Source: Euglena gracilis (Eukaryota). From it: a stretch of 64,000 nucleotides of DNA. This document shows, piece after piece, positions 43,314-64,000 of the stretch. The notes under the pieces are model-generated. The model had not been told where the DNA came from. It ran no database searches and saw nothing but the letters and a program-made list of their open reading frames with translations. Each line of letters begins with the position of its first letter. The first letter of the stretch is position 1. The DNA lies in NCBI GenBank assembly GCA_039621445.1, contig CP154954.1:26362954-26426953 (forward strand), in the 5' to 3' direction. A program made the position numbers and the translations under genes.

Positions 43314-44664
43314 TAACAGGCACTTTTTATAAAGAACTTCCGAAAAAAGTGCTCAAAAATCGCAAATCCGGGAAAAAAAATTTGGGGTCGAAAATTGGTG
43401 CTCCCGAAAATACGGGAGGAGGTGGGAGGGGTCGATGGCTGTTTGGCCGATTCCCTTGCGATTCACCGTGCCACCCCACCTGGACACACACACTGGGATG
43501 ATAAAAGAGGAGCTTGACTGCCTTGGTCCACAAGTCAGTTGGAAGTTCAATCTCAGTGTAAATGGAATTTGGAAGGGGCAAAAAATCATCAAACTGAGGG
43601 GATGACATTGGTTGCCTGCAGACAGGGTGAATGGATTGTGGCCATGCCAGTTCAGAGGCGTTGGAGCTTTTGCGGCACAACCCATGTGCACTTGGACGCA
43701 AAGTTCAGGTGAAAATCTTGATTGAGACCATTGGCATATTGACACTTGGTGTGAAGCAACAAAAATTTTCTTCTTTCTCGGAAAATCTGCGATGATTTCT
43801 TCATCCTTGAGACAAGAGGTGGGGATGGGATTTCAAACTTTTTTTTGGTGCCTCCGGTCGATCCCACACACAGTTTAGAGGTATGACCTGAGGGCGGAAA
43901 TTTCGGGCTGCGTGGTCTGGCGATAGGTAGGGAAGTCCTAACGCGCGAAGGCCCGGTTACCGCCGTGTGATGCTGTCTCATAATTAATGGCCCCCCCATC
44001 TGGAACATTTGGAACCTGTCCCCCACATGTGCTCCCCCTTGTGCCCTGCCCTGTGCCCTGCCCAAGCCAAAGGGGGGAAGGGGGGGGGTCAGGAGGTATT
44101 TGAGGTCACAAAAAAGACAAGACCCCCCCAAATGCAAATGCAAAAAAATGCACCACAACACCCCAAATCCAGAGGATTCTGGAAAAATTAAGGACCAGGT
44201 CCACACTGGAAAAACAGCAAGTGGCACAGATTGTGGAGGAAAGAAAAACAGCACAGATGGCTGCACAAACCAGGGCTGACAAAACCCAAACCCCAGCAAA
44301 GCTGCCCACAAACTCGGTGACAGCCGCAGACGACTGGTCTGTGCTGTCCTCGACGGATGCCTCCATCTGGGGGGAGTGGACTGGCCAAAGAAAAAAATAC
44401 AAAAAAGCCCTCGTGGACCAGTGGTTGGAAAACATCCATATCACTGTGGCCCCCCTTCCCCCTCACCCCCCCGGACGCACCTGGTCTGACCTGGCGGACG
44501 ATGAGGTCCAGCTCCTCCTGTATGCACCTTGTGCTCCGCTCCAGGGCGGGGGAGTCCGGTGGAAGTTCCTCGCCAAATCATGGGGGACAGGACACACCCT
44601 GGGCACCCACAGGGCCGGCCCCCCCCTCTGGCCGGCAGACCTGTGGCTCAATCACCACACGAAC

Positions 44665-44718
44665 AAAAACCACAGGGACATTCTCTGCTGTGGGGATATC
44701 GAAGAAAACCCGGGCCCT
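44665..44718 (+). other. 2A (StopGo) motif 1: RDILCCGDIEENPGP
   Basis: Matches D(V/I)ExNPGP; conserved in copy 2 (51045-51068). Confidence 0.9.
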
Positions 44719-45294
44719 TCTTCCGGGGGGCCAGCCGGCCAAATAGCCCGTCTGACAACGGACGAGATATGGGACGAACTTTACTGGAATGGCCAGCGTT
44801 GGAGGTGGCAACGTCTGCGCACCCCGGCCACAGCGGGCCCATCCTCTGGGGCCCCGGCCCAGGTCGGCCCAGGGACCGAATTTGCGAAATGCCGCCTGTG
44901 CTTTCAGCACATCAACCTGTCGTCTCTCTGGGACATGCAGTCCCACCACTGCCAGGCAGGTTGACCGCTCGGCAACATCTTTTCGCTCACCACAGTCCGG
45001 GAAGACAATTGGCGTTGGGACCTACACCACCTGGAATCCCTACCAAATGGCGAGTGGTGGCTGGTCCGCTGCAAGGTCTGTGGATGGTCGACAGAAACCC
45101 CTTACCCGGCACCCCTACTGAGCCACACGCAACTGTGTACACCACCGTCTCTCTCTGACTTGGAAAGCGACTTGGAAGGCGACGATAAATACGACGAAGC
45201 TGATAACAAGCGTGCGGTCTACTCACACGGCCACACGGAGGTCACCGCCGCCGGATCCAACAGCCCGGTACCTTGCTCGCCTCACTCATCCACC

Positions 45295-45348
45295 GGCAGG
45301 GGCGATGACATCCTCACCGATGGAGACGTCGAATGCAATCCGGGCCCC
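45295..45348 (+). other. 2A motif 2: GRGDDILTDGDVECNPGP
   Basis: Matches D(V/I)ExNPGP; conserved in copy 3 (61709-61732). Confidence 0.9.
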
Positions 45349-45394
45349 AGTAGTGCCACACGACCCCCTGAGGACCTCCCACGCCGAGTACCAC

Positions 45395-45790
45395 GCGAGG
45401 ATTTTATGCTGGACCCCCCGTGGTTCCAGGTCGTAGTCCGGGCCCTTTCGCCGAACAACCCGCCCACCATCGACGCCTTCGCCGACCAGAACAACACACA
45501 GCTAGCCCACTTCTGGTCACAAAGGGAGGACGCCTTCCTCCAGAACTGGTTCCTGCCGAATCCAATTTGGTGCAACCCGCCTTTTTCCTTGCTCCCTCGT
45601 GTTCTTGAGCACGTCCTCCGCCATGGGGGCAACATCATCCTCCTCGCACCAGAATGGTCCAATGTGATGGCTGGCCTTCGGAGCATCTCCTCGGGCAGCT
45701 TGCCCCTACCACGGTGCCCTATCTATCGGGCCAGGGGGACGGCACTGCTCCCGACCCCAGGCTGGGCAACTGTGGCCCTGCGGATACACC
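45395..45790 (+). CDS. Dam-like DNA N6-adenine methyltransferase domain
   Basis: DFMLDPPWF...IDAFA...N......EDAF.Q.W....WCNPPFS...VL......IILLAPEW, the pattern of the phage Dam / DIRS MT family. NPPF lies at 45574-45585. Confidence 0.88.
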
Positions 45791-46287
45791 ACCCAGGCCA
45801 CCCTCCACTGAGCAGTGCCCCGGGGCCAGTGAGGCCCGTCTCCCGCGCAAGCTACTCGGAACGTCCACATCGTGCCTCGCACACACCGTATCCGCTCGTG
45901 CCCCTCCTCTCCCTGGGACAGCACCGCCTCATCAGAAAGCGAACCGCCTGTCACGGCGGGGAAACATTCCACCTGGGGGACTACGCGGGCCGGACTTTCC
46001 TGATCCACCACGACGCCCTCTGGGACATCCGGGGCACCTCACCCCACTGGTGCCAACGCTGTGGACTGTGGCAATGGCCATGGGACTGTCCCACGCTACT
46101 TCCCCAACACTTCGCCGCACCCAAAACACCACTTCTCCGGCCTGCCTTCCGGCTGAACCCCACCCCACGCTCCCTCCTTGGCGCTGTACAAGCACCACCA
46201 GCTGAGACAGCGCCGGTCCACCCGGCATCAGAAAACGACCGGCGTAGTCCGTCACTGGGCGGTCCCTCCACCTTGGGGACCAACCGT

Positions 46288-46338
46288 GGACGGGGTAGCC
46301 TCCTCACCTGTGGGGATGTGGAGGGGAACCCTGGGCCG
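46288..46338 (+). other. 2A motif 3: GRGSLLTCGDVEGNPGP
   Basis: Matches D(V/I)ExNPGP; identical peptide in copy 3 (62659-62709). Confidence 0.9.
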
Positions 46339-46829
46339 GCCAAGCGCCCAGCACCGCCATCCCCCCGCGGCGCGCCAACCGAAACTGAGGCCAGGGAACA
46401 TGACCACCTTTTCCTGGACCTCGCTCACCCGGAACGTGACGCGGCGATGGTCATCGACAGTGCCGGCCAGGAGTCCAATCTCCGAGGACAGCCTGCGCAC
46501 AGTCTGGTGGTTGGCGCTCCCCCCTGCGACATAACCCACCTTCTCCAACAGAGAATTCCGACCCTCCTCCACCTGCCCTCGGCCTGCCAACAACCCGTCT
46601 TTGACACCATGGCATACGCCATCACGGCATACGTACGAGCACCCACGGACGCGGCATTGTTCGCCGTGCTCTCCTTCCCCAAGCTTGTCCTCCGCCCGCC
46701 ATCACCAAACCACTGCCACCAGCAGAACTGGAGTCCATCCTGCTGCGACGCGCCAGACTATTCCGCGAAGGGGATTACGCTACCCTGCTGACAGAAGCCC
46801 AAAAGGACACCCAGTCACGACACTCCATT

Positions 46830-49322
46830 GTGGAGACCAGGGCAGAAAAACGTTCCAGGACACAGCCCACCGCCCTCAGCGAAGCAATGACGAGACGCGT
46901 ACGCACCCTCACCGCAGAGGGGGCTTCTGAAAAGGCTGTTCAGATTCTGATGTCCGAGGGTGCGCACCAACCGGACGACCCAGAGGTCTGGGGCGCCCTG
47001 GAAAAGCTACACCCCGCCGGCAGGAATGTTGACACCAACCGCCTGCCACGTCATGTCCGCCCTTTCCCCGAGAACCACACCCCCGAGTGGGAGGACCGAC
47101 TGAAGGATGTCATCCGTCGCTTCCCACGGCCATCGGCGCCGGGGCCATCTGGGTTGCGACCAAGCCACCTCCAAGACTGCCTGCGGAGACCAGGTCGAGG
47201 AGCAAGGCTGATCACGGCCCTCGCACTCCTGACCCATGTCTGGGTGGACGGCCAGCTAGCCGCGGCCTGGTGCTGTGCGAACCTAACGCCGCTCCGCAAA
47301 AAGGACAACGGGATACGCCCGGTGGCGGTTGAGGAAACTATACGTCGCTTGGTGGGGAAAGCCCTGCTCCATACACCAAACGCCAGATCCGAGGTCGCAA
47401 CCCTCGCCCCTACCCAAGTAGGGGTTGGGGTACGAAACGCGGCTGAGGCCGTCGCTTTGGGTATGCAACACCTGGTCATTCAGCTGGGGGACACGGCGCC
47501 CTGGGTTTCTCTCCAGGTGGACTACTCCAATGCGTTCAACACGGTGGACCGAGGAGCAATTCTGACGGAGGCGGAAACACGCACCCCCAGCCTGTTCAAC
47601 TTTCTGAGATTTGCGTACAGTGGGCACGTTCCCTTGTTCTGCGGTGGTCGCTCCATCCTGTCACAGAGAGGCACCCACCAGGGCTGCCCATTGGGCCCCA
47701 TAGGGTTCGCACTCGCGCTACAGCCTCTACTGGAACAGATCACCAACGATGGTCAGCTGCTGTGGAACAGCTGGTACTTGGATGACGGCCTGCTGGTCGG
47801 GACTCCAGACCGGATTGAGCACTGCATTCGTTTCTTGATGCAAGAGTCCCATCGAATAGGGCTCGGCCTCAACCTGCAGAAGTGCGTCATGTGGGGCCCG
47901 GGATCCAGGAGCACGCCGAGTTCTGAAAGGATGCAAGTGGTCCCTTGGACCCCAGGGGAAGGCATCACCGTCCTGGGCATCCCAGTCGACCACCCAGCGT
48001 CTACGGACACCACACAAACGGCGTGGGAGACTGCCGCCGCCAAAATCGAGAAGGCCGCATCCACCATCACGTCCGTCACCGACGCTCAGGTAGCGCATCA
48101 TCTGCTTCGGAGCTGTCTGGATGGCTGCAAGGTTAACCACCTGCTTCGGGCATCCCACTCATATGGCAGCCAGGACCAGGTGAGAAGCTGTGCTGAGGTG
48201 ATCCTTAACTCCTTTGAAGACATCCTGGGCACGGCACTGAACACACAACAGCGGGCCCAGGCTTCCCTGCCATTGTCAAGTGGCGGCTGCGGCCTCCGCA
48301 TCCCAACCTTCACACAGCCTGCGGCCAGGATTTCCTGCCTTGCAGACTTCTACTCTGATGGGGCACGACGGGTTGGCGTTCCCGGCTACGCAACCTCCCC
48401 ACAGCCCTCCCTCGTTACGCCTGTCCTGGACGACCTCAGGGGCAGGCTAGGGGCAAACCACGCCACGGTCACCACCTTCCTCAGCAACCCTCAACGTATC
48501 GCGTCTGCGGACCCAGAAGCCCAGAAACAGAAATGGTGGAATCATGAGCTGGGCAACAAGACGATGGATGACCTGGTGGACCAGGCTCGTCCCCGGGACC
48601 AGAACCGCCTCCTCGAACAGGCCACAGGCTTCGGACATGGTTGGATGGCAGCAACCCCCTCCAACAACTCCCACACCAGTTTCTCCAGTGAGGAGTACAC
48701 CTTGGGGTTGAAGTGGTGGCTGGGTCTCCCGGTGCTGAACGACGTCAGTCAATCATGCACGGGATGCAACCAGCCCCTGGACAAGGAGGGTGACCACCTC
48801 CTTTGCTGTCGGCGGAATAACTTCGCCACCCGCCACAACGCTGTTCAGGACGCACTGTTCCAAACCTTGTCCAACAGCGGACAGCGGGTACAGAAGGAGG
48901 TTTCCCTGCCAACGGCCCGAGATAGCCACCTCCGCCCGGCCGACCTCCTCCTAGACTGTTGGTCTGACGGGAAGCCGACAGCGTTGGATGTCACCGTGTG
49001 CCACGGATGGCAGGCGACTGAACACACTGCCACCCGCGAACGGTGGAGATCCTTCCTGAAGAGAAGGGAGAAGGCTAAAAAGCAGAAGTACAATATCCCA
49101 TGCCAGCAGGCAGGCTGGGGCTTCACGCCCTTTGCCCTGGGAACCTGGGGGGGCATGGGGCCCGAGACAGCCAAAACCCTGAGCCGGGTGGCGAAACGCG
49201 CCTCGTCCTGGCAACAGGGGGCAGAACGAGAATTAAAGGAAGCGGAGATCTGCCAGAACGTCGCAATCGCCCTATTACACGAAGTCTTCCATCTCCTACA
49301 ACCCAAGCACATTCTCCGGTAA
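46830..49322 (+). CDS. Reverse transcriptase, zinc knuckle and restriction-like endonuclease (CRE-like)
   Basis: SAPGPSG, IRPVAV, VDYSNAFN, QGCPLGP, WYLDDG; CxxC..DH...C; RHN, RPAD, LDVT, KxxKY. Confidence 0.95.
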   Translation: METRAEKRSRTQPTALSEAMTRRVRTLTAEGASEKAVQILMSEGAHQPDDPEVWGALEKLHPAGRNVDTNRLPRHVRPFPENHTPEWEDRLKDVIRRFPRPSAPGPSGLRPSHLQDCLRRPGRGARLITALALLTHVWVDGQLAAAWCCANLTPLRKKDNGIRPVAVEETIRRLVGKALLHTPNARSEVATLAPTQVGVGVRNAAEAVALGMQHLVIQLGDTAPWVSLQVDYSNAFNTVDRGAILTEAETRTPSLFNFLRFAYSGHVPLFCGGRSILSQRGTHQGCPLGPIGFALALQPLLEQITNDGQLLWNSWYLDDGLLVGTPDRIEHCIRFLMQESHRIGLGLNLQKCVMWGPGSRSTPSSERMQVVPWTPGEGITVLGIPVDHPASTDTTQTAWETAAAKIEKAASTITSVTDAQVAHHLLRSCLDGCKVNHLLRASHSYGSQDQVRSCAEVILNSFEDILGTALNTQQRAQASLPLSSGGCGLRIPTFTQPAARISCLADFYSDGARRVGVPGYATSPQPSLVTPVLDDLRGRLGANHATVTTFLSNPQRIASADPEAQKQKWWNHELGNKTMDDLVDQARPRDQNRLLEQATGFGHGWMAATPSNNSHTSFSSEEYTLGLKWWLGLPVLNDVSQSCTGCNQPLDKEGDHLLCCRRNNFATRHNAVQDALFQTLSNSGQRVQKEVSLPTARDSHLRPADLLLDCWSDGKPTALDVTVCHGWQATEHTATRERWRSFLKRREKAKKQKYNIPCQQAGWGFTPFALGTWGGMGPETAKTLSRVAKRASSWQQGAERELKEAEICQNVAIALLHEVFHLLQPKHILR

Positions 49323-49571
49323 GGAGGAAAAAAAAACCCACAACAAGCACACACACACACACAACCACGACCCACCGCCACTCTCCCCGTCAAGCCACGT
49401 ACCGCTGCCCTGCCCCCGACCCCTCTACACTCCAGCACTGCCGTTCCCCTCAGCTCCCCGCTCCCCCTCGCCTCTCTACCCTCGCGTTACTTATTGAAGG
49501 TGGGCCTAGCCCATTTTCCACCCTCCATCCTATACCCCTGCTGTAAATTATTGTAACCGCCTGCGGACCTG

Positions 49572-49624
49572 CAAATCCAGTAGGCTGTGCCACTGGTCGG
49601 TGGATTCGGTTCGCCCCACCACCG
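49572..49624 (+). other. Conserved 3'-terminal double-hairpin element of family A
   Basis: 51/53 identical to 61461-61513. Stems CCAGT/ACTGG with GGC/GCC, and CGGTGG/CCACCG. Confidence 0.8.
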
Positions 49625-49668
49625 TGATTTGACCGCCGTGTGATAGTATGCACGCCGTGTGATAATAG

Positions 49669-49696
49669 ACACTTTCTGAGTGTCTATTTTTTTTCG
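49669..49696 (+). other. Euglenid spliced-leader exon sequence at the 5' end of family A copy 2
   Basis: (AC)ACTTTCTGAGTGTCTATTTTTTTTCG, followed 18 nt later by gccATG; no GT donor follows. Confidence 0.93.
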
Positions 49697-51562
49697 ATCT
49701 CCGCATAATCCGCCATGTCGGGGGCCGCGGCCCCAGAAGACCCGCCAGCTGTGCTAGAAGTGCCGCTGGACAACGTCATCCTCAACAAAAAATTGACTTC
49801 GGTGCTGGACCAAATGGGCCTGGTGGCCCAGAATATGATGCATTTGGCGAGCAAGGTGGAAGCCCTGGCCGACAAGGTGGAGGAAGGTCGACCAGGAAAA
49901 ATAAAAAGACAAGCAGAAGAAGACTATGAAGACTACCTCAGACAAAAGCACCAGAACAAGTACATCCCCCGCCACCTCCGCCACCAGCAACAGCAGCAGC
50001 CTGAGCAGCCCTTACCTCTCCCCTGTCCCCCCCACACACACACCCACACCACCACTCACACACCACACTTTTAATTTCCCAGGGGATGCCTGGAAGGACT
50101 GCCCAGCAACAACAGCAACAGCAACAGCTGCAGCCCCAAATGGGGCCACAAATGGGCAGCCAAATGGGGACCCAGATGGGCATGGGCAGTGCAACAGCCA
50201 ACAACCACCGACCCGCAGCAACTCCCCACCGACCTGCTGCGACAGCTGCTGGTGCAAATCATGTTGCTGCTGTTTGGAAATGTTACAAATGTTACAAATC
50301 AAAATGCCAGCAACATGCCCAATGCTGTCTCACAATTAATGGCCCCCCCCGCTGGAACATTTCGACCCTTTCCTCCACAAGTGCTCCCCCTTGTGCCCTG
50401 CCCTGTGCCCTGCCCAGGCCAAAGGGGGGAGGGGGGGAACAGGAAGTATTTGAGGTCCCAAAAAAGACAGGACCCCCCCCAAATGCAAATGCAAAAAAAT
50501 GCACCACAACACCCCAAATCCAGAGGATTCTGGAAAAATTAAGGACCAGGTCCACACTGGAAAAACAGCAAGTGGAAGAGATAGTGGAGGAAAGAAAAAC
50601 AGCACTAAAGGCTGAACAAGCCAGGGTTGGTAAAACCCAAACCCCAGCTGCCCACAAACTCGGTGACAGCCGCAGACGACTGGTCTGTGCTGTCCTCGAG
50701 GGACGCCTCCATCTGGGGGGAATGGACCGGCCAAAGAAAAATCTACAAAAAAAGCCCTCGTGGATCATTGGCTGGAAAACATCCATATCACTGCGACCCC
50801 CCTTCCCCCTCACCCCCCCGGACGCACCTGGTCTGACCTAGCGGACGATGAGGTCCAGCTCCTCCTGTACGTACCTTGTGCTCTACCCCAGGGAGGGGGG
50901 GAAGTCTCGTGGCTGCTCCTCGCCAAATCATGGGGGACTGGGCGCACCCTGGGCACCCACAAGGCCGGCGGACCCCTCTGGCCCACAGGCCTGTGGCTTG
51001 ACCCCCAAAGACAAAAATGCAATAGGGACGTCCTTCGCTGTGGGGATATCGAAGAAAACCCGGGCCCTTCCTCCAGGGGGCCAGCAGGCCAACCAGCCCC
51101 CCTGACACCGGACGACGTATGGGATGAACTGTACTGGAGTGGCCAGCGCTGGAGGTGGCAACGTCTGCGCACACAGCAGGCCCATCCTCTGCGGTCCCTG
51201 CCCAGGTCGGCCCAGGGACCGAATTTGAGAAATGCCGCCTGTGCTTTCAGCACATCAACCTGTCGTCCCTCTGGGACGTGCAGTCTCATCACTGCCAGGC
51301 AGGTAGACCGTTCGGCAACATCTTTTCGCTCACCACAGTCCGGGAAGACAATTGGCGCTGGGACCTCCAACACCTGGAATCCCTACCAAATGGCGAGTGG
51401 TGGCTGGTCCGCTGCAACGTTTGTGGGTGGTCGACAGAAACCCCTTACCCGGCACCCCTACTGAGCCACATCCAAGTCTCTCTCTGACTTGGAAAGCGAC
51501 TTGGAAGGGGACGATGAACACGACGAAGATGATAACAAGCATGATGACTACTCACACGGCCA
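49669..51562 (+). mobile_element. Family A copy 2, 5' portion (SL, ATG 49715, Q-rich region, 2A-1, zinc fingers; frameshifted)
   Basis: 50323-51562 is colinear with 43972-45233. Confidence 0.9.
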
Positions 51563-51584
51563 TTCTTCTCATTGGGGGCGTTTG

Positions 51585-51660
51585 GCCGGACCAACCTAGC
51601 CGGCCGGCAGACCAACCTAGCCGGCTGGCAGACCAACCTAGCCGACCAGCATGCCGGCTG
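51585..51660 (+). repeat. Short tandem repeat (GACCAACCTAGCCGG..., about 21 bp x3)
   Basis: Direct reading. The adjacent CTGTCCAGCCGTCCGTCCAGATGAAAG recurs at 61564. Confidence 0.7.
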
Positions 51661-52718
51661 TCCAGCCGTCCGTCCAGATGAAAGCCACTGTCGCTAGCCG
51701 CCCGGCTATCCAGACCAAGCAGCACGTACGCCGCACGCAGTGATGGCCGGATAAGAAGTCAATGTGTGCACCGGAGGGTGACTCCGTTCCTCCGGCCCGA
51801 GTGAATGTTCGGACCGAAAAAAAGGCCGCCTGTTGGCTTTAACCCGGAGGAGCTCAGAACAAGGAGACCCCGCCCCAAATAACTTGTGGCCATTGGTTCG
51901 CCTCCTTGAAAATATATCGTCAACAAAACTGGCCCAAAACCTTGCCACCCATCGGTTCCAAAACTGGCCACCACAAACCCTCCAAAACTGACCCACTTGC
52001 CATACTCAGAAACTGCACCTCCCCAATTTATTTAGCTTTCGTGTGTAAAGTGGACTTGTTTCACAGCAAAAAAACACTGTAAGGAACAAAAAAAAGCAAG
52101 TTTCAGAAGAAAAAGAGCATCTCATGATAAAACGTTTCTGGTCAAAATCTGGCACCATCTGGCCCAAAACTGGCCACCACATCTGGCCCAAAACTGGCCA
52201 ACACATGTGGTCCAAAAACTGGCCACCATCTGTGGCACAAAAATCGCCAAAATCTTCGGAATCTTCAAAATCCCTTCACATTTTGCACATTGGCACAATC
52301 TGAACGGGAGCTTTGCAAAAAAAGACCATAGTTCCTCGGTTTCCTTTGGTCTGGGGCTATTTTGTAAACAGAAACAATAAGAAAAGGCAAGAAACCAAAC
52401 ACAGTTCACAGAAACAGACCGACTTAAAGTCAATTCTGCAGCAGTCACAGCATAAGGCCAAATAAGCCCCAGCACTAAGGCTGGAAGCATTGTCCACCAG
52501 GGAACATATACTCTTGCAAATAGTCCTCCACTTCACCTTGGTCCTGTACTTCGACTTACAAGTTGTACTTGAACTTCAAAATTGACAAATTGTACTTGAT
52601 AATCCCAGCTTGTAACGAACCCCGCCAGGGGTCTCAGCCATGACATCGAAAAAACACAAGCAGAAAAGCCACAGTAATTAGGAATAAGTTTACTATCGCG
52701 ATTTTGAGACCAACCTGG

Positions 52719-52743
52719 CTTTCTGAGTGTCTATTTTTTTTCG
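52719..52743 (+). other. Euglenid spliced-leader exon sequence at the 5' end of family B
   Basis: CTTTCTGAGTGTCTATTTTTTTTCG directly after the left TSD. Confidence 0.92.
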
Positions 52744-53029
52744 CCCCGAGTGGGGTCTGAAGTTCAGAAGTACAATTGCCATCAGCAAGCAACCCCAAGG
52801 TTTGAAGAGTGGATTTGAACTACCTGAAGTTCCAACCTACAACTCAAAAGTGCAAATCCGAGATACAGTACAGTACATACAGACACTGGAGTGGTTCATC
52901 TCCTTGAGGAAGCTGCAGCAGCACAACATCATCATCTGCACCAGTTGGATGGAAGTATTATCCCTGTTTCACTATACTTTGCTGTACCACCTGTGCTGTA
53001 ACATAGCGTTCACAGTTCCAACCTGCACT

Positions 53030-53755
53030 GTGGCCCCAGGGCCTTATAAACATTTCACAGAGTTGGCCCCAGGGCCCAAGACTTCAGCCATGATGCTGTC
53101 CAATTTTGCCCCAGGGCCAAACACATTTCAAGCCAAAACTGGCACAGGAAAGTTTTTCACAAATGTGGCCCCAGGGCCCCAGACTTTTGCCATGATGCTG
53201 TTAAATTTTGCCACAGGGATCAACACATTTCCAACCAAACAACACATTTCCAACCAAATGTGGCACAGAAAAGATTTTCACAAATGTCGCCCCAGGGCCC
53301 AAGGCTTTTGCCATGATGCTGTCAAATTTTGCCACAGGGATCAACACACTTCCAACCAAATGTGGCACAGAAAAGTTTTTCACAGATGTGGCCCAAGGGC
53401 CCAAGGCTCCAGCCAAGATGCTGTCCAATTCTGCCCCAGGGCTCAACACATTCCAAGCCAAAACTGGCACAGAAATGTTTTTCATAGATGTGGCCAAAGG
53501 GCCCAAGGCTCCAGCCAAGACGCTGTCCAATTCTGCCCCAGGGCTCAACACTTTCCAAGCCAAAACTGGCACGGAAATGTTTTTCAGAGATGGGGCCCCA
53601 GGGCCCGAGATTTCAGCCAAGATGCTGTCAAATTTTGCCCCAGGGCACAACATATTTCCAGCCAAAACAGGCACGGAAGCAGAAAAGTTTTTCAAAGGTG
53701 TGGCCCGAAGGCCCGAAGCTTTTGTCAGGATGCTGTGGAATGTGGCCCCAGGGCA
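53030..53755 (+). repeat. Coding tandem repeat, 102 bp (34 aa) x about 7
   Basis: Unit resembles VAPGPKxxAxMLSNFAPGxNTFQAKTGTExFFTx. Confidence 0.9.
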
Positions 53756-53843
53756 CGACAGCCACGGACGGCAACCAAACAGGCTGAATATCACAGCAAA
53801 TGACCAGGAAAAAACACGGTCTGAGTACAGTCCCCCCCGTCAT

Positions 53844-53897
53844 GGCAGGGGCGAAAGCCCTGCCAGTTGTGGGGATATTGAAAGAAACCCAGGGCCC
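53844..53897 (+). other. 2A motif of family B: GRGESPASCGDIERNPGP
   Basis: Matches D(V/I)ExNPGP. Confidence 0.8.
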
Positions 53898-54385
53898 ACA
53901 GAAACCCGCCCTCCCCAGCAGGAGGACGTTGAAATGGCCTCAGCCTCGCAGAGCTTTGCGTCGCCGCCGACGGAGCAGCCACTCCTCGGATCTTGGTTTC
54001 CAATGCACTCGACGCCGCTGTTCTCGCCTGCTTTGCCCCAGGCTATAATGCCGCTTCCCAGTTTGAACGGGGGCCCCGGGACACCTTCAGCAGAACAAAC
54101 CATGGTCATTGACGAACTAGAGTCCCGGGTGCGCTCAGCGATTTCCGAAATTCACGGGTGTGGGCCACAGGGCCACGGGTTAATCGGGAATTTTGCGCCA
54201 TCTCCACCACAAGGGCAGGAGCAGGAGCGCCTAAATGGTCGAAGACAGCAGCCCCCCGTGGTTCCAGCACCAGCGCAATCCTCGACGAGCGCTGATCCGC
54301 TGCAAGTCACTCCCTTCTCGCAACCTTGCCCACCACTGCAACCATCCTGGGAAGAGATTTCCCAAGACACACGGGGCACCTTGGT

Positions 54386-55880
54386 CAAGACTGGGCATTC
54401 AATTCGCTCGTGAAATTTTTCCATCGTGAAATTTATGTCCGGCCGTTGAAAATTTCACGCATTTTTTCAAAAATTTCACTCGTCCTTAGTATGGAAGACG
54501 TATGTCCTTCGTTGTCCCTATTGCACGCAATGAAGATTTGCGTTCCGCTCGTGCATGCGACGCAGGGGGTCTCCAGTTCTTTTTCCAAATACGTTGACAA
54601 GCCCCCCCCACCAAAGCTGGCCATGGCCCAAAATTGGCAAGCACCTGTGACCCAAAACTGGCCAGCACCCGAGCCCAAAACTGGCCAGCACCCGTGGCCC
54701 AAAACTGGCCAGCACCCGTGGCCCAAAACTGGCCAGCACCTGTGGCCCAAAACTGGCCAGCACCCGTGGCAGCACCCGTGGCCAAAAACTGGCCAGCACT
54801 TGTGGCCAAAAACTGGCCAGCACCCGTGGCCAAAAACTGGCCAGCACTTGTGGCCAAAAACTGGCCAACACCTGTGGCCAAAAACTGGCCAGCACCATCT
54901 GTGGCCCAAAACTGGCCAGCACCTGTGGCCCAAAACTGGCCAGCACCCGTGGCAGCACCCGTGGCCAAAAACTGGCCAGCACTTGTGGCCAAAAACTGGC
55001 CAACACCTGTGGCCAAAAACTGGCCAGCACCATCTGTGGCCCAAAACTGGCCAGCACCTGTGCTGGCCACCACTAGTGGCCCAAAATTGGCCAACAAAAC
55101 AACAAATCAGAATGCACCAGATTACCATTTTGAAAACAAAACGGACAGACAAACAAAAACCTTCAATCCCAGTCACGGCAATCACAGCAGAATCAGAAAA
55201 TACACGCATTGTCTCTGATGGTTGCAATAAAAACAAAATGGAGCAGTTTTGCAGGGACATGCTCAGGTCCAGATTATCAATGTTTCCAAAGGCTCATCAT
55301 CATGTGCTTCCAATGACCTCATTGCCCAAGCATATACTTCAACAACTGTGAGATCTGTGAGAGAAAAATGAAAATTCACTGACAGAATTGTTTGGCAAAC
55401 CTTTGTCATGGGGAGCTTGGCAATACAAAACCAACACAAAGTTTTCACCAGTGTCTCATCCACTTTCTTTCGCATCTGCACCAGACTGTCCACAATGTCC
55501 AAAGTGATGTAGCCAGTGGCTTTCCCAAAACGTTCGGATAACACAACGTCGAACTGTTTATGAAGTTGAACTCCACTGCCACTCTTTCAATCCTCCAGAA
55601 GCCTTCTGCATATCATCCCAGTGAACAATAATTGCAACAAACATTTGTGACAACAATTGAAATTGAAACTCCGTCTCCTTCAGGATCTGCAATGAGCGTT
55701 TCCGGGCCACCCGACCGCTTGTCCGAAATGTTCATGAGAGAAAAATGGACGCTCAGAAGGAACGGCCGCTTGGGTATTTCCTAGTAGGATTCTCCTATTT
55801 TTTCAATGAAAATATTGAAATTTTTGAAAATTTTGAAATTTTCTGAAAAAATAAAAAATCCTGAAATTTGCCCAGTCTTG
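54386..55880. mobile_element. hAT-like non-autonomous element with an internal minisatellite
   Basis: TIR CAAGACTGGGCA and 8-bp TSD ACCTTGGT. Confidence 0.88.
54620..55095 (+). repeat. Minisatellite of about 24 bp (TGGCCCAAAACTGGCCAGCACC.G)
   Basis: About 17 units; related units at 51925-51995 and 52150-52235. Confidence 0.92.
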
Positions 55881-56416
55881 ACCTTGGTCCATATCCCACG
55901 GGGAGCTTTGCGAACCGTTGGGCTCGCCTTTTGCAGCATCCTCGGTCGCTTTGTGTCAAAGCAAGGTTGGGAGACCCTGCACGCACTTTGGTGCTTCCCA
56001 AAAGCCGTGCTTGCTCCATTGAAGCGGAGCGGGAAAAGCCATTGGGCTGCAGTTGGACGGAAAATTACCGACAGGGCCAATGCCTACCTCAACTGGTCCA
56101 CAGAAGTTTCGTGGAATGAGACGCGCCAAATTCGCGCTGCACAAAACCCAAAGAAGAGAACACGAAGTCAGACAAAAAATTTCCCCGCTGAAAGCCAAGA
56201 AAGGTTGTGCAACCGTGTTCAAAGCCTTGTCAGCCATGGGGCGGTCAGCAAAGCCTGCCGCATGCTGACTTCTGATGGAATCCAAGATGCAGATGACCCG
56301 CTGATCTTGGAACGGTTGGCTGCCTTGCACCCTCCTGAACCCCAACCTGGAAGGCAAAATTTGCCTCCGGACTTCCCGCGCCTCGAATTCGACCTGAGTG
56401 AAGATGCAACCAGGGA

Positions 56417-57936
56417 GGCGCAAGGCGGTAGACTGGGGGGGGGGGGGTAGTGGGTAGTCGGCCGACTAGTCGGCCGACTACCCAATTGGTCCACCGACTA
56501 GTCCTAGTCGGTAGCTAGTCGGCGAGACAGGGGGGGGGGGGGGTAGTGGGTAGTCGGCCAACTAGTCGGCCGACTACCCACTCTAATGTACTAACGGGTC
56601 AAAACCGCCGACTTTTAAGCCCCCCCCCCCATGAACAAAATCCAATGCAATCTAGTCGGTGGCTAGTCGGCGGTCATAAAAATGGTCTGTGGCGGGCCCA
56701 AATCACCCGGAAATGGTCCGGATGGGTCCAAATAAGTGTCTTACGCCTAAATAAACACCCCCAGATGGAAATCTTTGGTCAGTGGGGGGTCGGTGGGCCC
56801 TTGATGGGGGTCCGGAGGGGTAAAGAACCAATGATGAAACAGGGATTACATTAAAATCCTTTAGAAATGCAATCTGCAATCTGCGTTTTGCATCACGAGA
56901 GGCAGAAAACTCCCCCCTCCACGCCAATCCGAGACTCAAATAACAAAATCCCTTCTGTGTTGGCAACGTACTCGGGGGCTAAGTCGTTTTTGTGGCTCAC
57001 TTTGGCATAGGCGGGGGGGCTCCGCCCCCCCGCACCCCCCCCCTCAAATAACAAAATCCCTTCTGTGTTTGCAACATACTCGGGGGCTAAGTCGTTTTTG
57101 TGGCTCACTTTGGCATAGGCGGGGGGGGCTCCGCCCCCCCCGCACCCCCCCCCCCCCTCAAATAACAAAATCCCTTCTGTGTTGGCAACATACTCGGGGG
57201 CTAAGTCGTTTTTGTGGCTCATTTTGGCATAGGCGGGGGGGGCTCCGCCCCCCCCGCACCCCCCCCCTCAAATAACAAAATCCCTTCTGTGTTTGCAACA
57301 TACTCGGGGGCTAAGTCGTTTTTGTGGCTCACTTTGGCATAGGCGGGGGGGGCTCCCGCCCCCCCCGCACCCCCCCCCTCAAATAACAAAATCCCTTCTG
57401 TGTTTGCAACATACTCGGGGGCTAAGTCGTTTTTGTGGCTCACTTTGGCATAGGCGGGGGGGGCTCCGCCCCCCCCGCACCCCCCCCCCTCAAATAACAA
57501 AATCCCTTCTATGTTGGCTATAGACTTGGGGGATAAGACCCTTTTTTTGTGCAAATTTTGACTTATACTGAAAATTCAATGGGGAGAGGAGTACTTTTGT
57601 CAAAAGTGGCCCAAAATGGACATTTTCCCCCAATTTTTTTGCATATTCACCCCCGATTGGGGGGTTCTGGAGCCATTTGGGTCGGTTTTGACCGGAGTTG
57701 AGGTGATTTAGACATTTTTTTTTACCAGGGGGGGGGGGCTTAAAAGTCGGCGGTTTTGACCCGTTAGTACATTAGAGTGGGTAGTCGGCCGACTAGTCGG
57801 CCGACTACCCACCACCCCCCCGCCGACTAGCCACCGACCAATTAGTCGGCCGACTAGTCGGTGGACCAATTGGGTAGTCGGCCGACTAGTCGGCCGACTA
57901 CCCACTACCCCCCCCCCCAGTCTACCGTTTGGCACT
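56417..57936. mobile_element. Mutator-like non-autonomous element
   Basis: Long TIRs (GGTAGACTGGG...GTAGTCGGCCGACTAG) and 9-bp TSD AACCAGGGA. Confidence 0.85.
56935..57520 (+). repeat. Tandem repeat of about 110 bp, 5+ units
   Basis: Unit CTCAAATAACAAAATCCCTTCTGTG...GGCATAGGCGGG... Confidence 0.92.
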
Positions 57937-59452
57937 AACCAGGGAGCGCCTGATTGAAATACGGAAAGCAGTCATGTCTTTCCCGAAGGAATCCTCGCCA
58001 GGACCGTCTGGACTTCGGCCAGATCATCTTAAAGACATGCTCTCTGATCCTCTGGGGACACAATCAGATCAACTCCTCACAATTCTGGAGCAATTCGTCC
58101 GAACATGTTTGACCAACGGAATCCACAACTCTGCGGCTTGGATTTTCGCTGGTGCCCGTCTGACTCCTCTTCGAAAACCCTGCAATCCAAGCGAAAACCT
58201 CGATGAGCTTGGCAATACCAACGCCATTCCTGACCCAAAGAAGGATGGCACGCGACCAATTGCAGCTGGGGAATGCCTGCGCCGATTGGTGGGCAAATAT
58301 TTGATGAGACACCCCAAAATCAGGGACCGCCTAAAAGAACTGCAGCCACTACAATGCGGTGTAGGGATCCAGGGGGCATGTGAACTCATTGCCATGGGAC
58401 TGCAGCAAGAAGTAAATCACCTGCATATGCAACAAGACAACACCTGGGCTTTGCTACAGGTAGATTTCAGCAATGCTTTTAATTGCGTAAAAAGAAAGAC
58501 AGTCCTTGCTGAAGTGGCCAAACGCTGCCCGGAGGCGTATGTTTGGTTCGAGAGCTGCTACGCCGAACACAGCCCGCTCTTTTGTGGGTCATCACACCTT
58601 CGCAGTGCTTCTGGTGTACAACAAGGTGACCCTTGTGGCCCAGCCGGATTCGCCTTGGCGTTACAATCTCTCGTTGAGTCCTTGCAAGACGTGGTGCCAC
58701 TGCAATTGTGGTATTTGGATGATGGACACATCCTGGGAACCCTCCCACAATTACATGAAGCAATTACAGAAATCCAACGACAGGGGACGCTACTAGGCAT
58801 ACACCTCAACGCAAAAAAATGCCGCCTGTGGGGACCTGCAGCAACAGAAGCCAATCGTGCTGAAATGCCGCCAAACAGCCCACTTCGTGCAGTCCCAATC
58901 GTGAACTACTCCCCCGATTCTGGTATACGTGCCTTGGGAATCCCGGTTTGCCATCCACAAAGCGGTGGCTTTGCGGGGGAAGTGTGGGCTGAACGTGCAA
59001 CAGGTGTGCAGAAAGCTTGCCGGGCCCTTTTGAACCTGCCGCAAGCCCATATTCAGTTCTGCCTTTTGCGATCTTGCCTAGATGCATGCAAAGTTAACGA
59101 CCTCATGCGTGCAACAGAACTGGGGCAGGCAAAAGACGCATGTGCACTGCTGACTAAAGAAATCAGGAACACATTGAGCAACATTGTTGGATCCCCAATC
59201 GATGACAACCAATGGGCTCAGGCCACCCTGCCCGCGCGTCATGGCGGACTCGGAATTCGGGACCCATCGCTGGAACGTCTCCCAGCACGCATATCCGGCA
59301 TTGTGACATTTGTCAGCAATGGCAGACGCACCTTGGGCCTGGCAGACCGAGGAGTACCGAAAGACACTGCGGAGTGCTTGTTCTCTGCCAACTCCATCCT
59401 CGAAGGAACGCCCCCAACGGAAACATGGGCCGCGGATGTATCACTCCTGAAC

Positions 59453-60114
59453 TAAGGTTGTTTCGATTAATCGATTTTTTGATTAATCGTTCGCCACCCC
59501 TTGATTAATCGTTCATTCGGCCAGGGGGTGATTAATCGAAATAATCGGTCTTCCCAAGGAAACCATTGAAAAAGCAGTGCAAGAAAACACTTGGGATTGA
59601 TCATTTTGGAGGCTCTGTCTCACAGAAATGTCACTGTGTGTTGCTTTCTTTTGGGGGAGACCCGTTAGGAAACAAACGACGCACAGACATCAGAGCACAG
59701 ATGGAAGAGTCATCCAGCTTAGCGCGCAAGTCGCTATGCAGGAGACTCTGGTGAGAAAAACTGCGCTCAACACAAGCTTCTGAAACACCAAGGCTGAAAA
59801 TTGCAATGGCAACTTTGGCCAAAATCGGCACATGCAAAGCAACCGCCTCCTAAAATTGCACAGGCTGAGGAAGTGGCCGAGCAGTGATGCCCAAAGGGCC
59901 ATTTCGGGTCACCCATTGCCCCACCTCCCGTTTAAGCTGTGGCAAAATATCTTTTTTCAAAACATTATTTTTCAAGGGAAATGAAGTGTTTGTTGGTCAT
60001 CATAATGCTAGGAACCCAAAGGGGGCATTAATCGTTCGGTAATCGTTCGCCACCCCCCGATTAATCGGCATTAATCGTTCGGTGCCGTCGATTAAGATTA
60101 ATCGTCCAACCTTA
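59453..60114 (-). mobile_element. Internally deleted hAT transposon retaining a dimerisation-domain fragment
   Basis: TIR TAAGGTTG..CGATTAATC and TSD CCTGAAC (7 bp). 59631-59837 reads PILAKVAIAIFS...SEACVERSFS.....H...R..L. Confidence 0.88.
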
Positions 60115-61460
60115 CCTGAACGAAGCCCAAAGCCCTCACATTCAACAGAAGTGGTGGGGTGAATGCTTTGCGAAACAACGACAAAAGGCATTATCTTCCA
60201 ACCTTCACGGTCAAGACGCCGTCCGGTTCGCAAGCCAACAACGGCCCCACGCAATGGCCTGGGCTTCTGTCTCACCATCCTCTGGACTGAAAACATTGGT
60301 CGCATCTGCCGAATTCAAAGGCTTTCTAAAGTGGTCACTGGGAGCACCAGTATGCCCACCAACGGGATCTACGTGCCCACGCTGCTCCAAGCCAATGGAC
60401 AACCTGGGTAATCACCTTGTATGCTGCAGCTCAAATGGCATCACGCGGCGACACGGTGCGATCCAGGACTTTGTGTTCCAATTGGCACATGATGCCGGGT
60501 TTACAGCAAAAAAAGAACAAGGTGGTCCAGAGAGAACACGCCCGGGCGATGTTCTCATCAGCAGACTTGACGCCAATGGTCCTGGAGCAGTGGATATCAC
60601 AGTGAGACACACAGCAGCACCATACAGACCGTTGCGTGACACAGCCGAACTAACCGAATGGTATGAACGCCAAGAGAAGGAAAAGCATTCAAAATATGAC
60701 GCCACCTGTAGGAGGCTGGGATGGACCTGCATCCCATTCGTTGTCGACTGCTATGGCGGCCTAGGCCAAGAAGCGCTAACCCTAATGTCAACACTGATGA
60801 AGCTTCTCCTCGGTCAACAAGATGCATGGTCAAAACGCAAAACTGAAGCCAACACATGGCAACTTCTATCAATAACTGTTGCGCGAGAGATCGCGCGACA
60901 AGTAATCTGGGGACGGTATGCAGGTAACGACACAGATCCAGAAGCAACAAACACCATACACCAGCCGTACTGTCTGTAAAGAAGACCATTGTGATCCCTG
61001 GTCCCAGAGTAAATAATTCACCTAAGACCATCCACAACTCTTCATCAAGCAAACAACCATACCCAATCATCCATAACCTGTGCCTCACATTGGCAAGACA
61101 AGTGGCCCGCCAGCCGGCATGGGGAACTATGGCGGTACCTACCTGGAGCGGTGGATCCCACCACCCAAAGCCAATACGAATTGGAGTGAGCAATTTGACC
61201 AACCGCTCTCCCACCCCATCCCTCCAAACAAAAACAAAAAAAAACCACAAGCACACACACACCACACACACACACACACACACACCAGCCACCACGCCCC
61301 CCGCCTCTCACCCCCAACGCACCTCACACAACATCCGCCAAGCTTCCCCTCGCCCCTCCGTCTTACCTGCTACCAAGGCCGCTCGTCTTTACACTCCCTC
61401 ACCTGTACCTCGGACTGCCCGCTGATTCCGCTTCTGTATATAGCCCTACCCCTGAACACT

Positions 61461-61513
61461 CAAATCCAGTAGGCTGTGCCACTGGTCGGTGGACTCGGCT
61501 CGCCCCACCACCG
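61461..61513 (+). other. Conserved 3'-terminal double-hairpin element of family B
   Basis: 51/53 identical to 49572-49624. Confidence 0.8.
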
Positions 61514-61603
61514 GTTTCAGTGAATCCAACCTGGCCATCCGTCCGTCCAGACCAAAATGCACCCTGTCCAGCCGTCCGTCCAGATGAAAGGAATTTTCTC
61601 TAG

Positions 61604-61646
61604 CCGTCCGTCCGTCCGTCCGTCCGTCCGTCCGTCCGTCCGTCCG
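61604..61646 (+). repeat. (CCGT)n microsatellite
   Basis: Direct reading. Confidence 0.9.
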
Positions 61647-61659
61647 CACAGCTCCATTT

Positions 61660-63276
61660 CTCGCCTCATTCATCCACCGGCAGGGGCGATGACATCCTCA
61701 CCGTTGGAGACGTCGAATGCAATCCGGGCCCCAGTAGTGCCAAACGACCCCCTGAGGACCTCTCACGCCGAGTACCACGCGAGGATTTTATGCTGGACCC
61801 CCCGTGGTTCCAGGTCGTAGTCCGGGCCCTTTCGCCTCACAACCCGCCCACCATCGACGCCTTCGCTGACCAGAACAACACACAGCTAGCCCACTTTTGG
61901 TCACAAAGGGAGGACGCCTTCCTCCAGAACTGGAACCTGCCGAACCCAATATGGTGCAACCCGCCTTTTTCCTTGCTCCCTCGTGTTCTTGAGCACGTCC
62001 TCCGCTATGGGGGCAACATCATCCTCCTCGCACCGGACTGGTCCAAGGTGCTGGCTGCCCTTCAGAGCATCTCCTCGGGCAGCATGACCCTGCCACGGTG
62101 CCCTATCTACCGGCACTGCTCCCGGCCCCGGTCTGGGCAACTGTAGCCCTGCGGATACACCACCCAGGCCACCCTCCACTGAGCAGTGCCCCGGGGCCAG
62201 TGAGGCCCGTCTCCCGCGCAAGCTACTCGGAGCGTCCGCCTCGTGCCTCGTACACACCATATCCGCTCGCGCCACTTCTCTCCCTGGGGCAGCACCGCCT
62301 CATCAGCAAGCGAACCGCCTTACACGGCGGCGAAACATTCCACCTGGGGGACTACGCGGGCCGGACTTTCCTGATCTACCACGACGCCCTCTGGGACATC
62401 CGGGGTACCTCCCCCCACTGGTGCCAATGCTGTGGACTGTGGCAATGGCCATGGGACTGTCCCACGCTACTTCCCCAACACTTTGCCGCACCCAAAACAC
62501 CACTTCTCCGGCCTGCCTTCCGGCTGAACCCCACCCCACACTCCTTCCTTGACGCCGTACAAGCACCACCAGCTGAGACAGCGCCGGCTCATCCGTCACC
62601 AAAAAACGACCGTCGTAGTCCGTCACTAGGCGGTGCCTACACCTTGGGGACCAACCGTGGACGGGGTAGCCTCCTCACCTGTGGGGATGTGGAGGGGAAC
62701 CCTGGGCCAGCCAAGCGCCCAGCACCGCCATCCCCCCGCGGAGCGCCAACCGAAACTGAGGCCAGAGAACATGACAACCTTTTCCTGGACCTCGCTCACC
62801 CGGAACGTGACGCGGCGATGGTCATCGACGGCGCCAGCCAGGAGTCCAATCTCCGAGGACAGCATGCGCACAGTCTGGTGGTTGGCGCTCCCCCCTGCGA
62901 CATAACCCACCTTCTCCAACAGAGAATTCCGACCCTCCTCCACCTGCCCTCGGCCTGCCAACAACCTGTCTTTGACACCATGGCAGACGCCATTACGGCA
63001 TATGTACGAGCACCCACGGACGCGGCATTGTTCGCCGTGCTCTCCTTCCCCAAGCTTGTCCTCCGCCCTGCATCAACAACCAAACCACCGCCACCAGCAG
63101 AACTGGAGTCCATCCTGCTGCGACGCGCCAGACTATTCCGCGAAGGGGATTACGCTACCCTGCTGACAGAGGCCCAAAAGGACACCCAGACACGACACTC
63201 CATTGGGGAAACCAGGGCAGAAAAACGCTCCAGGACACAGCCCACCGCCCTCAGTGAAGCAATGACGAGACGCGTA
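61660..63276 (+). mobile_element. Family A internal segment, copy 3 (2A-2, MTase, 2A-3, pre-RT region)
   Basis: Colinear with 45276-46901. It ends at TA followed by CCTCCCCCC, the terminus type of the local TA-MITEs. Confidence 0.92.
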
Positions 63277-64000
63277 CCTCCCCCCATGGAATCTCGACTG
63301 GCATGAATGTCGACAAGTAATTTCTCGGCCAATAAAATGCCGACAGCCGGCTCCGGTCGAACAGACTTTTGTCGAAGGTTGGTTTTTGGCATGAGTTTCC
63401 CCATAGGTCGCCGCGCTGCTTCCCGCCAGTAAATATGTAACTTACCTGTCCCGACGAGGCTTCTTTTTAAGGTGCAGAGTCTCCCGGGGGGTGGGTCCGG
63501 GCCGGACCCCCCCCCCCGGGGGTGTTCCCCCCGTGACCCACCCGTGACCCCCCCCGTGACCCCCCCGTGACCCGAACAAGGACCCTTTTCGGCGAAATTT
63601 TGTAGGGAAAATTTTTGGCCGGTGATGCCCAATTTGATAAAATTCTCATGCAGATTCCTAATTTTGAGGTGTAAAATTTGCAAATTTGGGCTTGGTGATT
63701 CCTAATTTTGTGTCAAATTCCTAATTTCAGGTGTGGAGATTCCTAATTTGTGGAATTTTTCCACAAAAATTCCGGCTCGGTGATTCCTAATTTTGCCACC
63801 AAAAATGTGGTGTTCCCCCCGTGTCCCCCCCCCGTGACCCCCCCGTGACCCTCCCCGTGACCCGAACCACCCCCCCCCCGGGCGCCGGAGGCGCTGGGTA
63901 TACCTTTTCCGCGCGAAGCGCCGAAAAATTTTGGAAATTGCCTTTAATGGGCCCATTTTTGGGGGGTCCCCGCCCCCCGGGGGGGGTCCAGCCACCCTGC

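Follow-up and report, generated by a model that had tools for sequence, protein, structure and literature searches.

Genomic copies of two R2-like retrotransposon families in Euglena gracilis begin with the host spliced leader and probably derive from trans-spliced mRNA

A 64,000-nucleotide (nt) stretch of Euglena gracilis DNA (contig CP154954.1, positions 26,362,954 to 26,426,953; hereafter the window) was found to carry two retrotransposon families that lack long terminal repeats (non-LTR elements), designated A and B, and in each family one copy starts with the host spliced leader (SL). Trans-splicing of Euglena mRNAs is established (PMC6242988; PMC11170887), and it is likely that the mRNAs of both families receive the SL by trans-splicing and that target-primed reverse transcription (TPRT) then copies the mature mRNA to its 5' end.

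A search of the window with the 24-nt core of the SL gave exactly two matches, at 49673-49696 and 52720-52743, both on the forward strand, and no match was obtained in 100 dinucleotide-preserving shuffles of the same sequence. The first match lies in a complete 28-nt SL exon (49669-49696) at the 5' end of the second family A copy; this 28-mer is identical, letter for letter, to the E. gracilis SL primer given in PMC5654406 and includes the 26-nt E. gracilis SL given in PMC6242988. The second lies in a 25-nt SL (52719-52743) at the 5' end of the family B element, where the first 3 nt of the 28-mer are missing. In family A the SL is followed by an 18-nt 5' untranslated region (UTR) and the ATG of the first open reading frame (ORF) (49697-49717), with an in-frame TAA 9 nt before the ATG. 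The sequence directly 3' of the SL is ATCT in family A and CCCC in family B, with a GT donor in neither, and no Sm-like AATTTTTG[GA] site was found within 3 kb downstream of either SL. A search of the window for the last 14 nt of the SL found only the two full SLs, with no relic or second SL, and an Rfam scan of the 64 kb returned no SL RNA or 5S gene at the gathering score. The original prediction, made from the sequence alone, had placed the family A SL 18 nt upstream of an ATG (found at 49715) and the family B SL directly inside a target site duplication (TSD), and had noted neither a GT donor nor an Sm site behind either SL and no tandem SL relics; the observation was confirmed in every part. 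The statement that both families start with the SL held for the one full-length copy of each family in the window, together with indirect contig evidence for family A.

As a control for SL RNA genes, public contigs were scanned with an SL 23-mer. Metagenome contigs gave nine matches in eight contigs. The SL was directly followed by GTAT (TTTTCG/GTAT) in eight of the nine, and six of these eight GTAT-type matches had AATTTTTG[GA] within 160 nt of the SL; five of the metagenome matches shared an identical 28-mer, the same as that at 49669-49696. The SLs in the window (TTTTCG/ATCT in family A and TTTTCG/CCCC in family B) end at the donor base of the true SL genes, and neither of them is an SL RNA gene. 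No match was found in the viral contigs scanned, and the prokaryote genome contigs gave a single match (L009), which lies in the record of a bacterial metagenome-assembled genome and is probably contamination. The ten SL matches outside the window therefore comprised eight SL genes and two retrocopy-like sequences, L003 and L009. In L003 an SL variant is followed 17 nt later by an ATG and an open frame of 264 codons, with upstream DNA present and the donor absent; in L009 the SL has upstream DNA and is followed by non-intron sequence. Neither of these two, nor the metagenome matches as a whole (n = 9), showed homology to families A or B beyond the SL, and the L003 ORF matched no Pfam family (E up to 1). 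The first three nucleotides after the SL are ATC in three of the four intron-less SL copies (family A, 49697-49699; L003, minus strand 809-807; L009, 817-819) but not in family B; this common ATC may be due to chance, to a preference in acceptor context or to distant relatedness of the 5' UTRs. Two of the metagenome SL RNA genes (L002 and L007) carry runs of TTAGGG-type repeats about 130 nt after the SL exon.

The relation of the SL to the insertion was examined in family B. This element (52719-61525, forward strand) consists of the SL, a 5' region with tandem repeats of about 102 bp, a 2A motif (53874-53897), a reverse transcriptase (RT) domain (57890-59455; RVT_1, 1.1e-13), a CCHC motif with a restriction-like endonuclease (RLE) (60065-60979), a 3' motif and a 12-nt tail; its reading frames are broken. 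It is flanked by a 9-bp TSD, CCAACCTGG, the left copy of which (52710-52718) directly precedes the SL and the right copy of which (61526-61534) directly follows the 3' tail. Both copies of the repeat are followed by C, so that its length may be 10 bp and that of the SL 24 nt.

Four sequencing runs were compared with the window, namely X1 (DNA contigs), X15 (probable RNA contigs) and X21 and X24 (raw RNA reads, about 5-6% of each run being read); a search for runs made with the stretch itself listed no RNA run. One X1 DNA contig joined the left flank of family B to the sequence after the element, with neither the element nor the SL (joint 52720 to 51658, with 27 letters between). This uninterrupted target differs from the flanks in the window by two 4-nt indels and one substitution and is thus a paralogue, not an allele. 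The original prediction had recognised that an SL already present at empty sites would speak against its arrival with the element; the one paralogous target found is SL-free. The family B SL lies within the insertion.

The target of family B is itself a repeat of about 1.3 kb (51563-52709 and 61535-61656) that stands in place of about 40 nt of the second family A copy. It holds three GACCAACCTAGCC units and CCGT-rich runs, and its part at 52412-52716 was covered by RNA reads and by X15 record 15, a probable RNA contig, which come from a paralogue with consistent differences. Within family B, an inverted duplication (56426-56630 against 57927-57728, 87% identity) surrounds about 1.3 kb with tandem repeats of about 110 bp (56935-57560), a segment that may have arisen by nested insertion and so split the RT frame. 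The family B ORF with the 2A motif and the RLE-bearing piece (60065-60979) matched no Pfam family (E up to 1), and the 125-residue 5' frame across the SL had no homologue among proteins of 68-219 residues.

The original proposal that the reverse-transcribed RNA already included the SL is supported by its position inside the family B TSD, by the SL-free paralogous target, by its ending at the true exon end and by an RNA-type contig that joins it to family A. The last of these, X15 record 9 (probable RNA, 220 nt, 7 mismatches, 97% identical), corresponds to 49675-49894 and runs from inside the SL into ORF1 of family A, so the SL-A junction exists in another copy or in its transcript. X15 behaves like RNA because other mRNAs part just after the SL in this run. 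The majority letter of X1 at 49709, which is 13 nt beyond the SL, had a depth of 36,903 of 37,288, from six contigs, and lay 34 letters from a contig end; if this is the left end, most family A 5' UTRs in DNA would run into the SL.

Three mechanisms had been offered for the presence of the SL in that RNA: trans-splicing of the element RNA, source copies at the exon end of SL genes, and an SL hard-wired as the 5' end of the element. The evidence leans to trans-splicing but does not decide against the other two. Splicing predicts that the unrelated 5' sequences of A and B should meet the SL at the same boundary, as was observed, and the lack of a 5S or SL RNA gene in the window also supports it, as do the retrocopy-like sequences L003 and L009 and the R2-like protein architecture. 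A source copy of a promoterless element would be transcribed within a longer precursor, and the host spliceosome would attach the SL exon at a 3' splice site that lies shortly upstream of the first ORF, 18 nt from the ATG in the case of family A, and would thereby supply both the cap and the 5' end of the element RNA. The polyprotein translated from this mRNA would be cut at 2A-like sites, and the RT/RLE protein would recognise a common 54-nt 3' motif and nick the target. TPRT that proceeded to the very 5' end of the mRNA would then yield a new copy headed by the SL (all 28 nt in family A, 25 of the 28 in family B) and enclosed by a short TSD.

RNA evidence for family B is consistent with this scheme. 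In X15 record 16 (318 nt, 1 mismatch in 312 nt) and in 12 RNA reads of X21, the body of family B from 52743 onwards was joined to a different upstream sequence, so that a different but nearly identical copy has an RNA junction or acceptor at the position of the SL/B boundary. This non-SL upstream sequence ends in AAA and, with G52743, places AG before the body. The junction at 52743 looks like an outron acceptor, or like a cis acceptor that is also used for trans-splicing, which is supportive but not decisive.

The same junction bears on the proposal that master copies reside inside SL RNA genes at the end of the SL exon and are transcribed from the SL promoter with no trans-splicing, the copies in the window being their daughters. 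SLACS is transcribed from position +1 of the SL gene that it interrupts, and its RNA begins with SL bases. A comparable arrangement here would suit the family A SL, which is complete from its first base (28 nt), and daughters that cannot be precisely re-spliced, a state that agrees with a small number of privileged masters. Site specificity is typical of R2-like RLE elements, with SL genes being the target of CRE/SLACS/CZAR and NeSL elements (in part PMC4640811). However, two families with unrelated 5' ends would both have to insert at the splice-donor boundary base, and the 5' body of B was joined in RNA at that same base to non-SL sequence. Furthermore, neither insertion site in the window resembles an SL gene, and the eight SL-gene matches in metagenomes, a small sample from other genomes, were uninterrupted. 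Promoter borrowing of this kind is therefore considered very unlikely.

Another source of an SL-headed copy would be a chimera, formed when the RT left the element RNA and continued on an unrelated host mRNA that carried the SL, or on SL RNA. R2 RTs are known for template jumping, parts of the first 300 nt of family B (52743-53054) were found in RNA in other sequence contexts, and no protein homologue was found for this stretch. The intron part, however, is absent, although a jump onto SL RNA would have copied it as well. In addition, the family A SL lies 18 nt from the element's own start codon with the same junction in a second copy (the 97% identical X15 record 9), and the 5' region of family B is multi-copy in the DNA contigs, with a depth like that of the flanking repeats. 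A chimeric origin is highly improbable.

Joints between element ends were seen in the X1 DNA contigs. In ten contigs, with nine joints among those listed, a short spacer that differed from case to case (for example, 12 nt or 35 nt) led from the 3' motif end (49602-49625) to where an SL starts. The SL in the joints listed started at nt 2, 3, 4 or 5 of the 28-mer (49670, 49671 or 49672; 52719 or 52720), and one contig was aligned from 52716; such variable starts are as expected of complementary DNA (cDNA) ends. By our own estimate from the depths, head-to-tail joints of this type occur far above chance. The two family A copies in the window form one such joint, with 44 nt between the 3' motif and the SL; the others could be due either to targeted insertion or to end-to-end template jumping. 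The origin of the window pair in a single template-jump event was considered and rejected, since the first copy alone is flanked by a 12-bp TSD and is therefore an independent insertion. Assembly artefact or cDNA contamination was also rejected as a source of the genomic SLs, because DNA contigs from an independent run hold SLs joined to element 3' ends.

The 3' motif-spacer-SL joints suggest that the SL end is active in integration or template jumping, and they bear on the proposal that the DNA-encoded SL is retained as the element's own 5' module, whether it provides an internal promoter or initiator, signals translation or receives the RT in template jumps, so that daughter copies would be autonomous. 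Such a role, which would be compatible with an origin by trans-splicing, is unlikely. It would account for SLs that are unmutated in both families (28/28 and 25/25 nt) despite decayed bodies, although by our estimate 28 nt at a few percent divergence would remain unchanged with a chance of roughly 0.2-0.4. It would also fit the lack of relic SLs in the window, and the promoter Pr77 of trypanosomatid long interspersed elements (LINEs) binds SNAP50 and TBP (PMC8190864). The word depth of the family A 5' UTR (about 37,000 at 49709) was not below that of the body (12,000-40,000), but copy number is poorly reflected by depth. In the comparison with X1, X15, X21 and X24 no transcription start was detected, no position being one at which many molecules begin. 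A more specific form of the proposal is that the genome-encoded SL works either as a transcription start or capping site at SL position 1, in the manner of the SL exon within some SL genes, or as the end from which the RT jumps to the 3' motif of a second element RNA, or as both; this we regard as distinctly unlikely. If true, it would explain the head-to-tail joints, the lack of relic SLs and the propagation of daughters, and trans-splicing would replace the ribozyme and promoter solutions by which other LINEs define the 5' end.

Several points weigh against the trans-splicing account. The window holds a single full-length copy of each family, the first family A copy being 5'-truncated and uninformative, and the right end of the second lies beyond the window, so the location of the SL inside a TSD rests on family B. 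The RNA contig with the SL-A junction could equally stem from a DNA-encoded SL. At 52743 the upstream RNA sequence ends in AAAG, which is only a moderate match to the E. gracilis consensus of CAG and a C-rich tract (PMC11170887), and it could be the end of a cis exon or the flank of a truncated copy; at two further breakpoints in RNA reads (52783 and 52818) the window sequence lacks canonical splice signals. The depth of X21 and X24 was 0 over 50252-51547 of family A and below 2.5 over 49676-50251, and beyond 53132 in family B it was 0 in X21 and did not exceed 0.55 in X24; there is consequently no evidence in these runs of current full-length expression. A daughter copy lacks an AG where the SL meets the body and so could not be precisely re-spliced, which, together with the absence of relic SLs, means that propagation needs master copies, none of which was found in the window. 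Splicing at the AG inside the SL would leave relics; since none were seen, either few master loci or a function of the encoded SL is implied.

Both families are R2-like non-LTR retrotransposons with a restriction-like endonuclease. They have a non-LTR-type RT with CCHC and PD-(D/E)XK RLE modules C-terminal to it, and the marks of TPRT are present: LTRs are absent, TSDs measure 9 bp (B) and 12 bp (first copy of A), the first copy of A is 5'-truncated and the 3' motif is common to both. A and B are 37% identical in the RT and 30% in the nuclease part, and are thus distinct families of one R2-like RLE-type group. The 905-residue RT frame of family A had 149 homologues in the protein collection; among the 120 listed, none had an informative name and 12 were called 'hypothetical protein', and a cluster look-up of ten homologues gave nine without a name and one 'hypothetical protein'. 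A profile built from 29 homologues matched R2 (9nl3_A, E 1.4e-34) from the RT through to the C-terminal nuclease (profile positions 192-908 of 933 against chain positions 411-1155), and matched LINE-1 ORF2p at about 1e-13. The profile was required, as ORF2 of family A used as a single-sequence query gave no match in the PDB. In the 29 sequences C718, C721, H731, C735, R743, H744, E765, D780 and D795, all after the RT, were invariant. No Pfam match to an APE nuclease was found in 13 ORFs, and a search of viral contigs with the RT profile gave 63 pattern matches, none of which was confirmed.

Seven 2A-like D(V/I)ExNPGP motifs were present in the window, all on the forward strand (44695-44718, 45325-45348, 46315-46338, 51045-51068, 53874-53897, 61709-61732 and 62686-62709). 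All of them lie between modules within the three LINE copies, and such motifs were also present in 14 of the first 120 homologues. To judge from their sequence, they divide the LINE polyproteins into modules, cleavage being predicted only.

The 54-nt 3' motif occupies 49572-49625 in the first copy of family A, where it is followed by an 8-nt tail (49625-49632), and 61461-61514 in family B, where it has two differences relative to A and is followed by the 12-nt tail (61514-61525), both on the forward strand; a 28-mer core is identical in the two families. The word depth of the motif in the X1 DNA contigs was about 30 times that of the element bodies, and 140 contigs parted from the window just upstream of it, at 49571/49572, so the motif is common to many elements, probably to many LINE families and families resembling short interspersed elements. 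It is probably a recognition site for the RT. Two hairpins were predicted in its fold, with z scores of -0.74 and -0.61 that were not significant.

Copies of family A, all on the forward strand, were defined by self-comparison of the window. The first copy (43972-49632) is 5'-truncated, lacks an SL and contains a zinc-finger-like region, a Dam-like domain, an RT, a CCHC motif and an RLE (Pfam: Dam 1.6e-07, RVT_1 3.9e-12), with one in-frame TGA (44962-44964) and one frame change near 46600-46790. Its 12-bp TSD, CCGCCGTGTGAT, is at 43960-43971 and 49633-49644, the right copy lying 24 nt (49645-49668) before the SL of the second copy, or 23 nt with the shared A at 49645 included. Beside the right TSD there is a doubled 12-mer (49634-49645 and 49653-49664), the near-repeat CGCCGTGTGATA. 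The second copy is split by an interruption of about 10 kb (51562 to 61657), inside which family B sits. Its 5' part (49669-51562), which includes the 2A-like motif at 51045-51068, is 88% identical to the first copy over 50322-51562. The continuation (61657-64000) runs off the window end, is 94% identical to 45273-46902 and contains a Dam-like region, detected by tblastn, and two 2A motifs. ORF1 of family A matched only DUF1003 in Pfam (E up to 1), at E 0.72, which is below the cut-off, and no family was found in the same search for the ORF at 50667-51464 or for the RLE-bearing piece at 48600-49322.

The Dam-like region is an N6-adenine methyltransferase domain (PF05869, E 1.6e-07, with an NPPF motif) that lies upstream of the R2-like RT/RLE and is bounded by 2A motifs, at 44965-46791 in the first copy and 61657-63277 in the second. 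PF05869 was also present in four of the 120 listed homologues of the family A RT frame. A 2026 preprint on DAM-encoding retrotransposons describes DAM domains in Euglena retroelements, as DIRS/LTR types; it also mentions Euglena elements with LINE-like RTs, and 'spliced leader' occurs 0 times in its text.

Literature searches returned no description of SL-bearing retrotransposon copies in Euglena. When a LINE passes through an RNA copy, its promoter or a defined 5' end has to be preserved; the known ways to do so are an internal promoter, a ribozyme or insertion behind a host promoter. Families A and B are autonomous R2-like elements that appear to solve this problem by host SL trans-splicing, of which the SL in the DNA copy would be the record. 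The SL would then be a built-in marker of full-length, mRNA-derived insertions in the very large, repeat-rich Euglena genome, and it gives a direct route to asking which copies are masters. The RT activity that produces SL-tagged retrocopies may also come from these two families.

Elements with a tie to the host SL are known in CRE1/CRE2, SLACS and CZAR of kinetoplastids and NeSL-1 of nematodes, which, like A and B, have an RT followed by CCHC and RLE modules, and the kinetoplastid elements also have euglenozoan hosts. They interrupt SL RNA genes at a fixed internal site, so that the halves of the SL gene form their flanks. A and B are set apart by their insertion site: the insertion includes the whole exon up to the donor boundary and is flanked by unrelated repeats, there is no SL gene in the vicinity, and no donor, intron or Sm-like site was found within 3 kb.

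A parallel in the form of the copies is provided by the SL-tagged retrogenes of dinoflagellates, in which, as in A and B, a DNA-encoded 5' SL marks the copy of a trans-spliced mRNA (PMC12014239, PMC6050394). In both families the 5' UTR of a processed transcript directly follows the genomic SL, with no donor between. The dinoflagellate copies are those of host genes, often with truncated relic SLs in tandem, whereas A and B are two families of autonomous elements with no tandem relic in the window. Transcripts of transposons have been shown to use host SL trans-splicing in Hydra, as is proposed here for A and B, with about 30% of transposon Iso-Seq reads carrying the SL (PMC12220107); that report concerns transcripts, and genomic copies beginning with the SL are not described in the available part of its text.

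With respect to protein architecture and 2A-like motifs, A and B resemble R2 and the trypanosomatid LINEs, respectively; L1Tc carries a 2A peptide. Family A is distinguished from R2 and from L1Tc/ingi by its Dam-like adenine methyltransferase domain. An element without a promoter of its own, or one that is co-transcribed, requires a device by which its 5' end is defined. The 5' end of R2 is defined by a ribozyme, and L1Tc/ingi elements have the Pr77 promoter and a ribozyme like that of hepatitis delta virus. Unlike elements that rely on a self-cleaving ribozyme, or on an internal promoter that gives an unspliced RNA (PMC1874656), A and B apparently obtain their 5' end through trans-splicing of the host SL.

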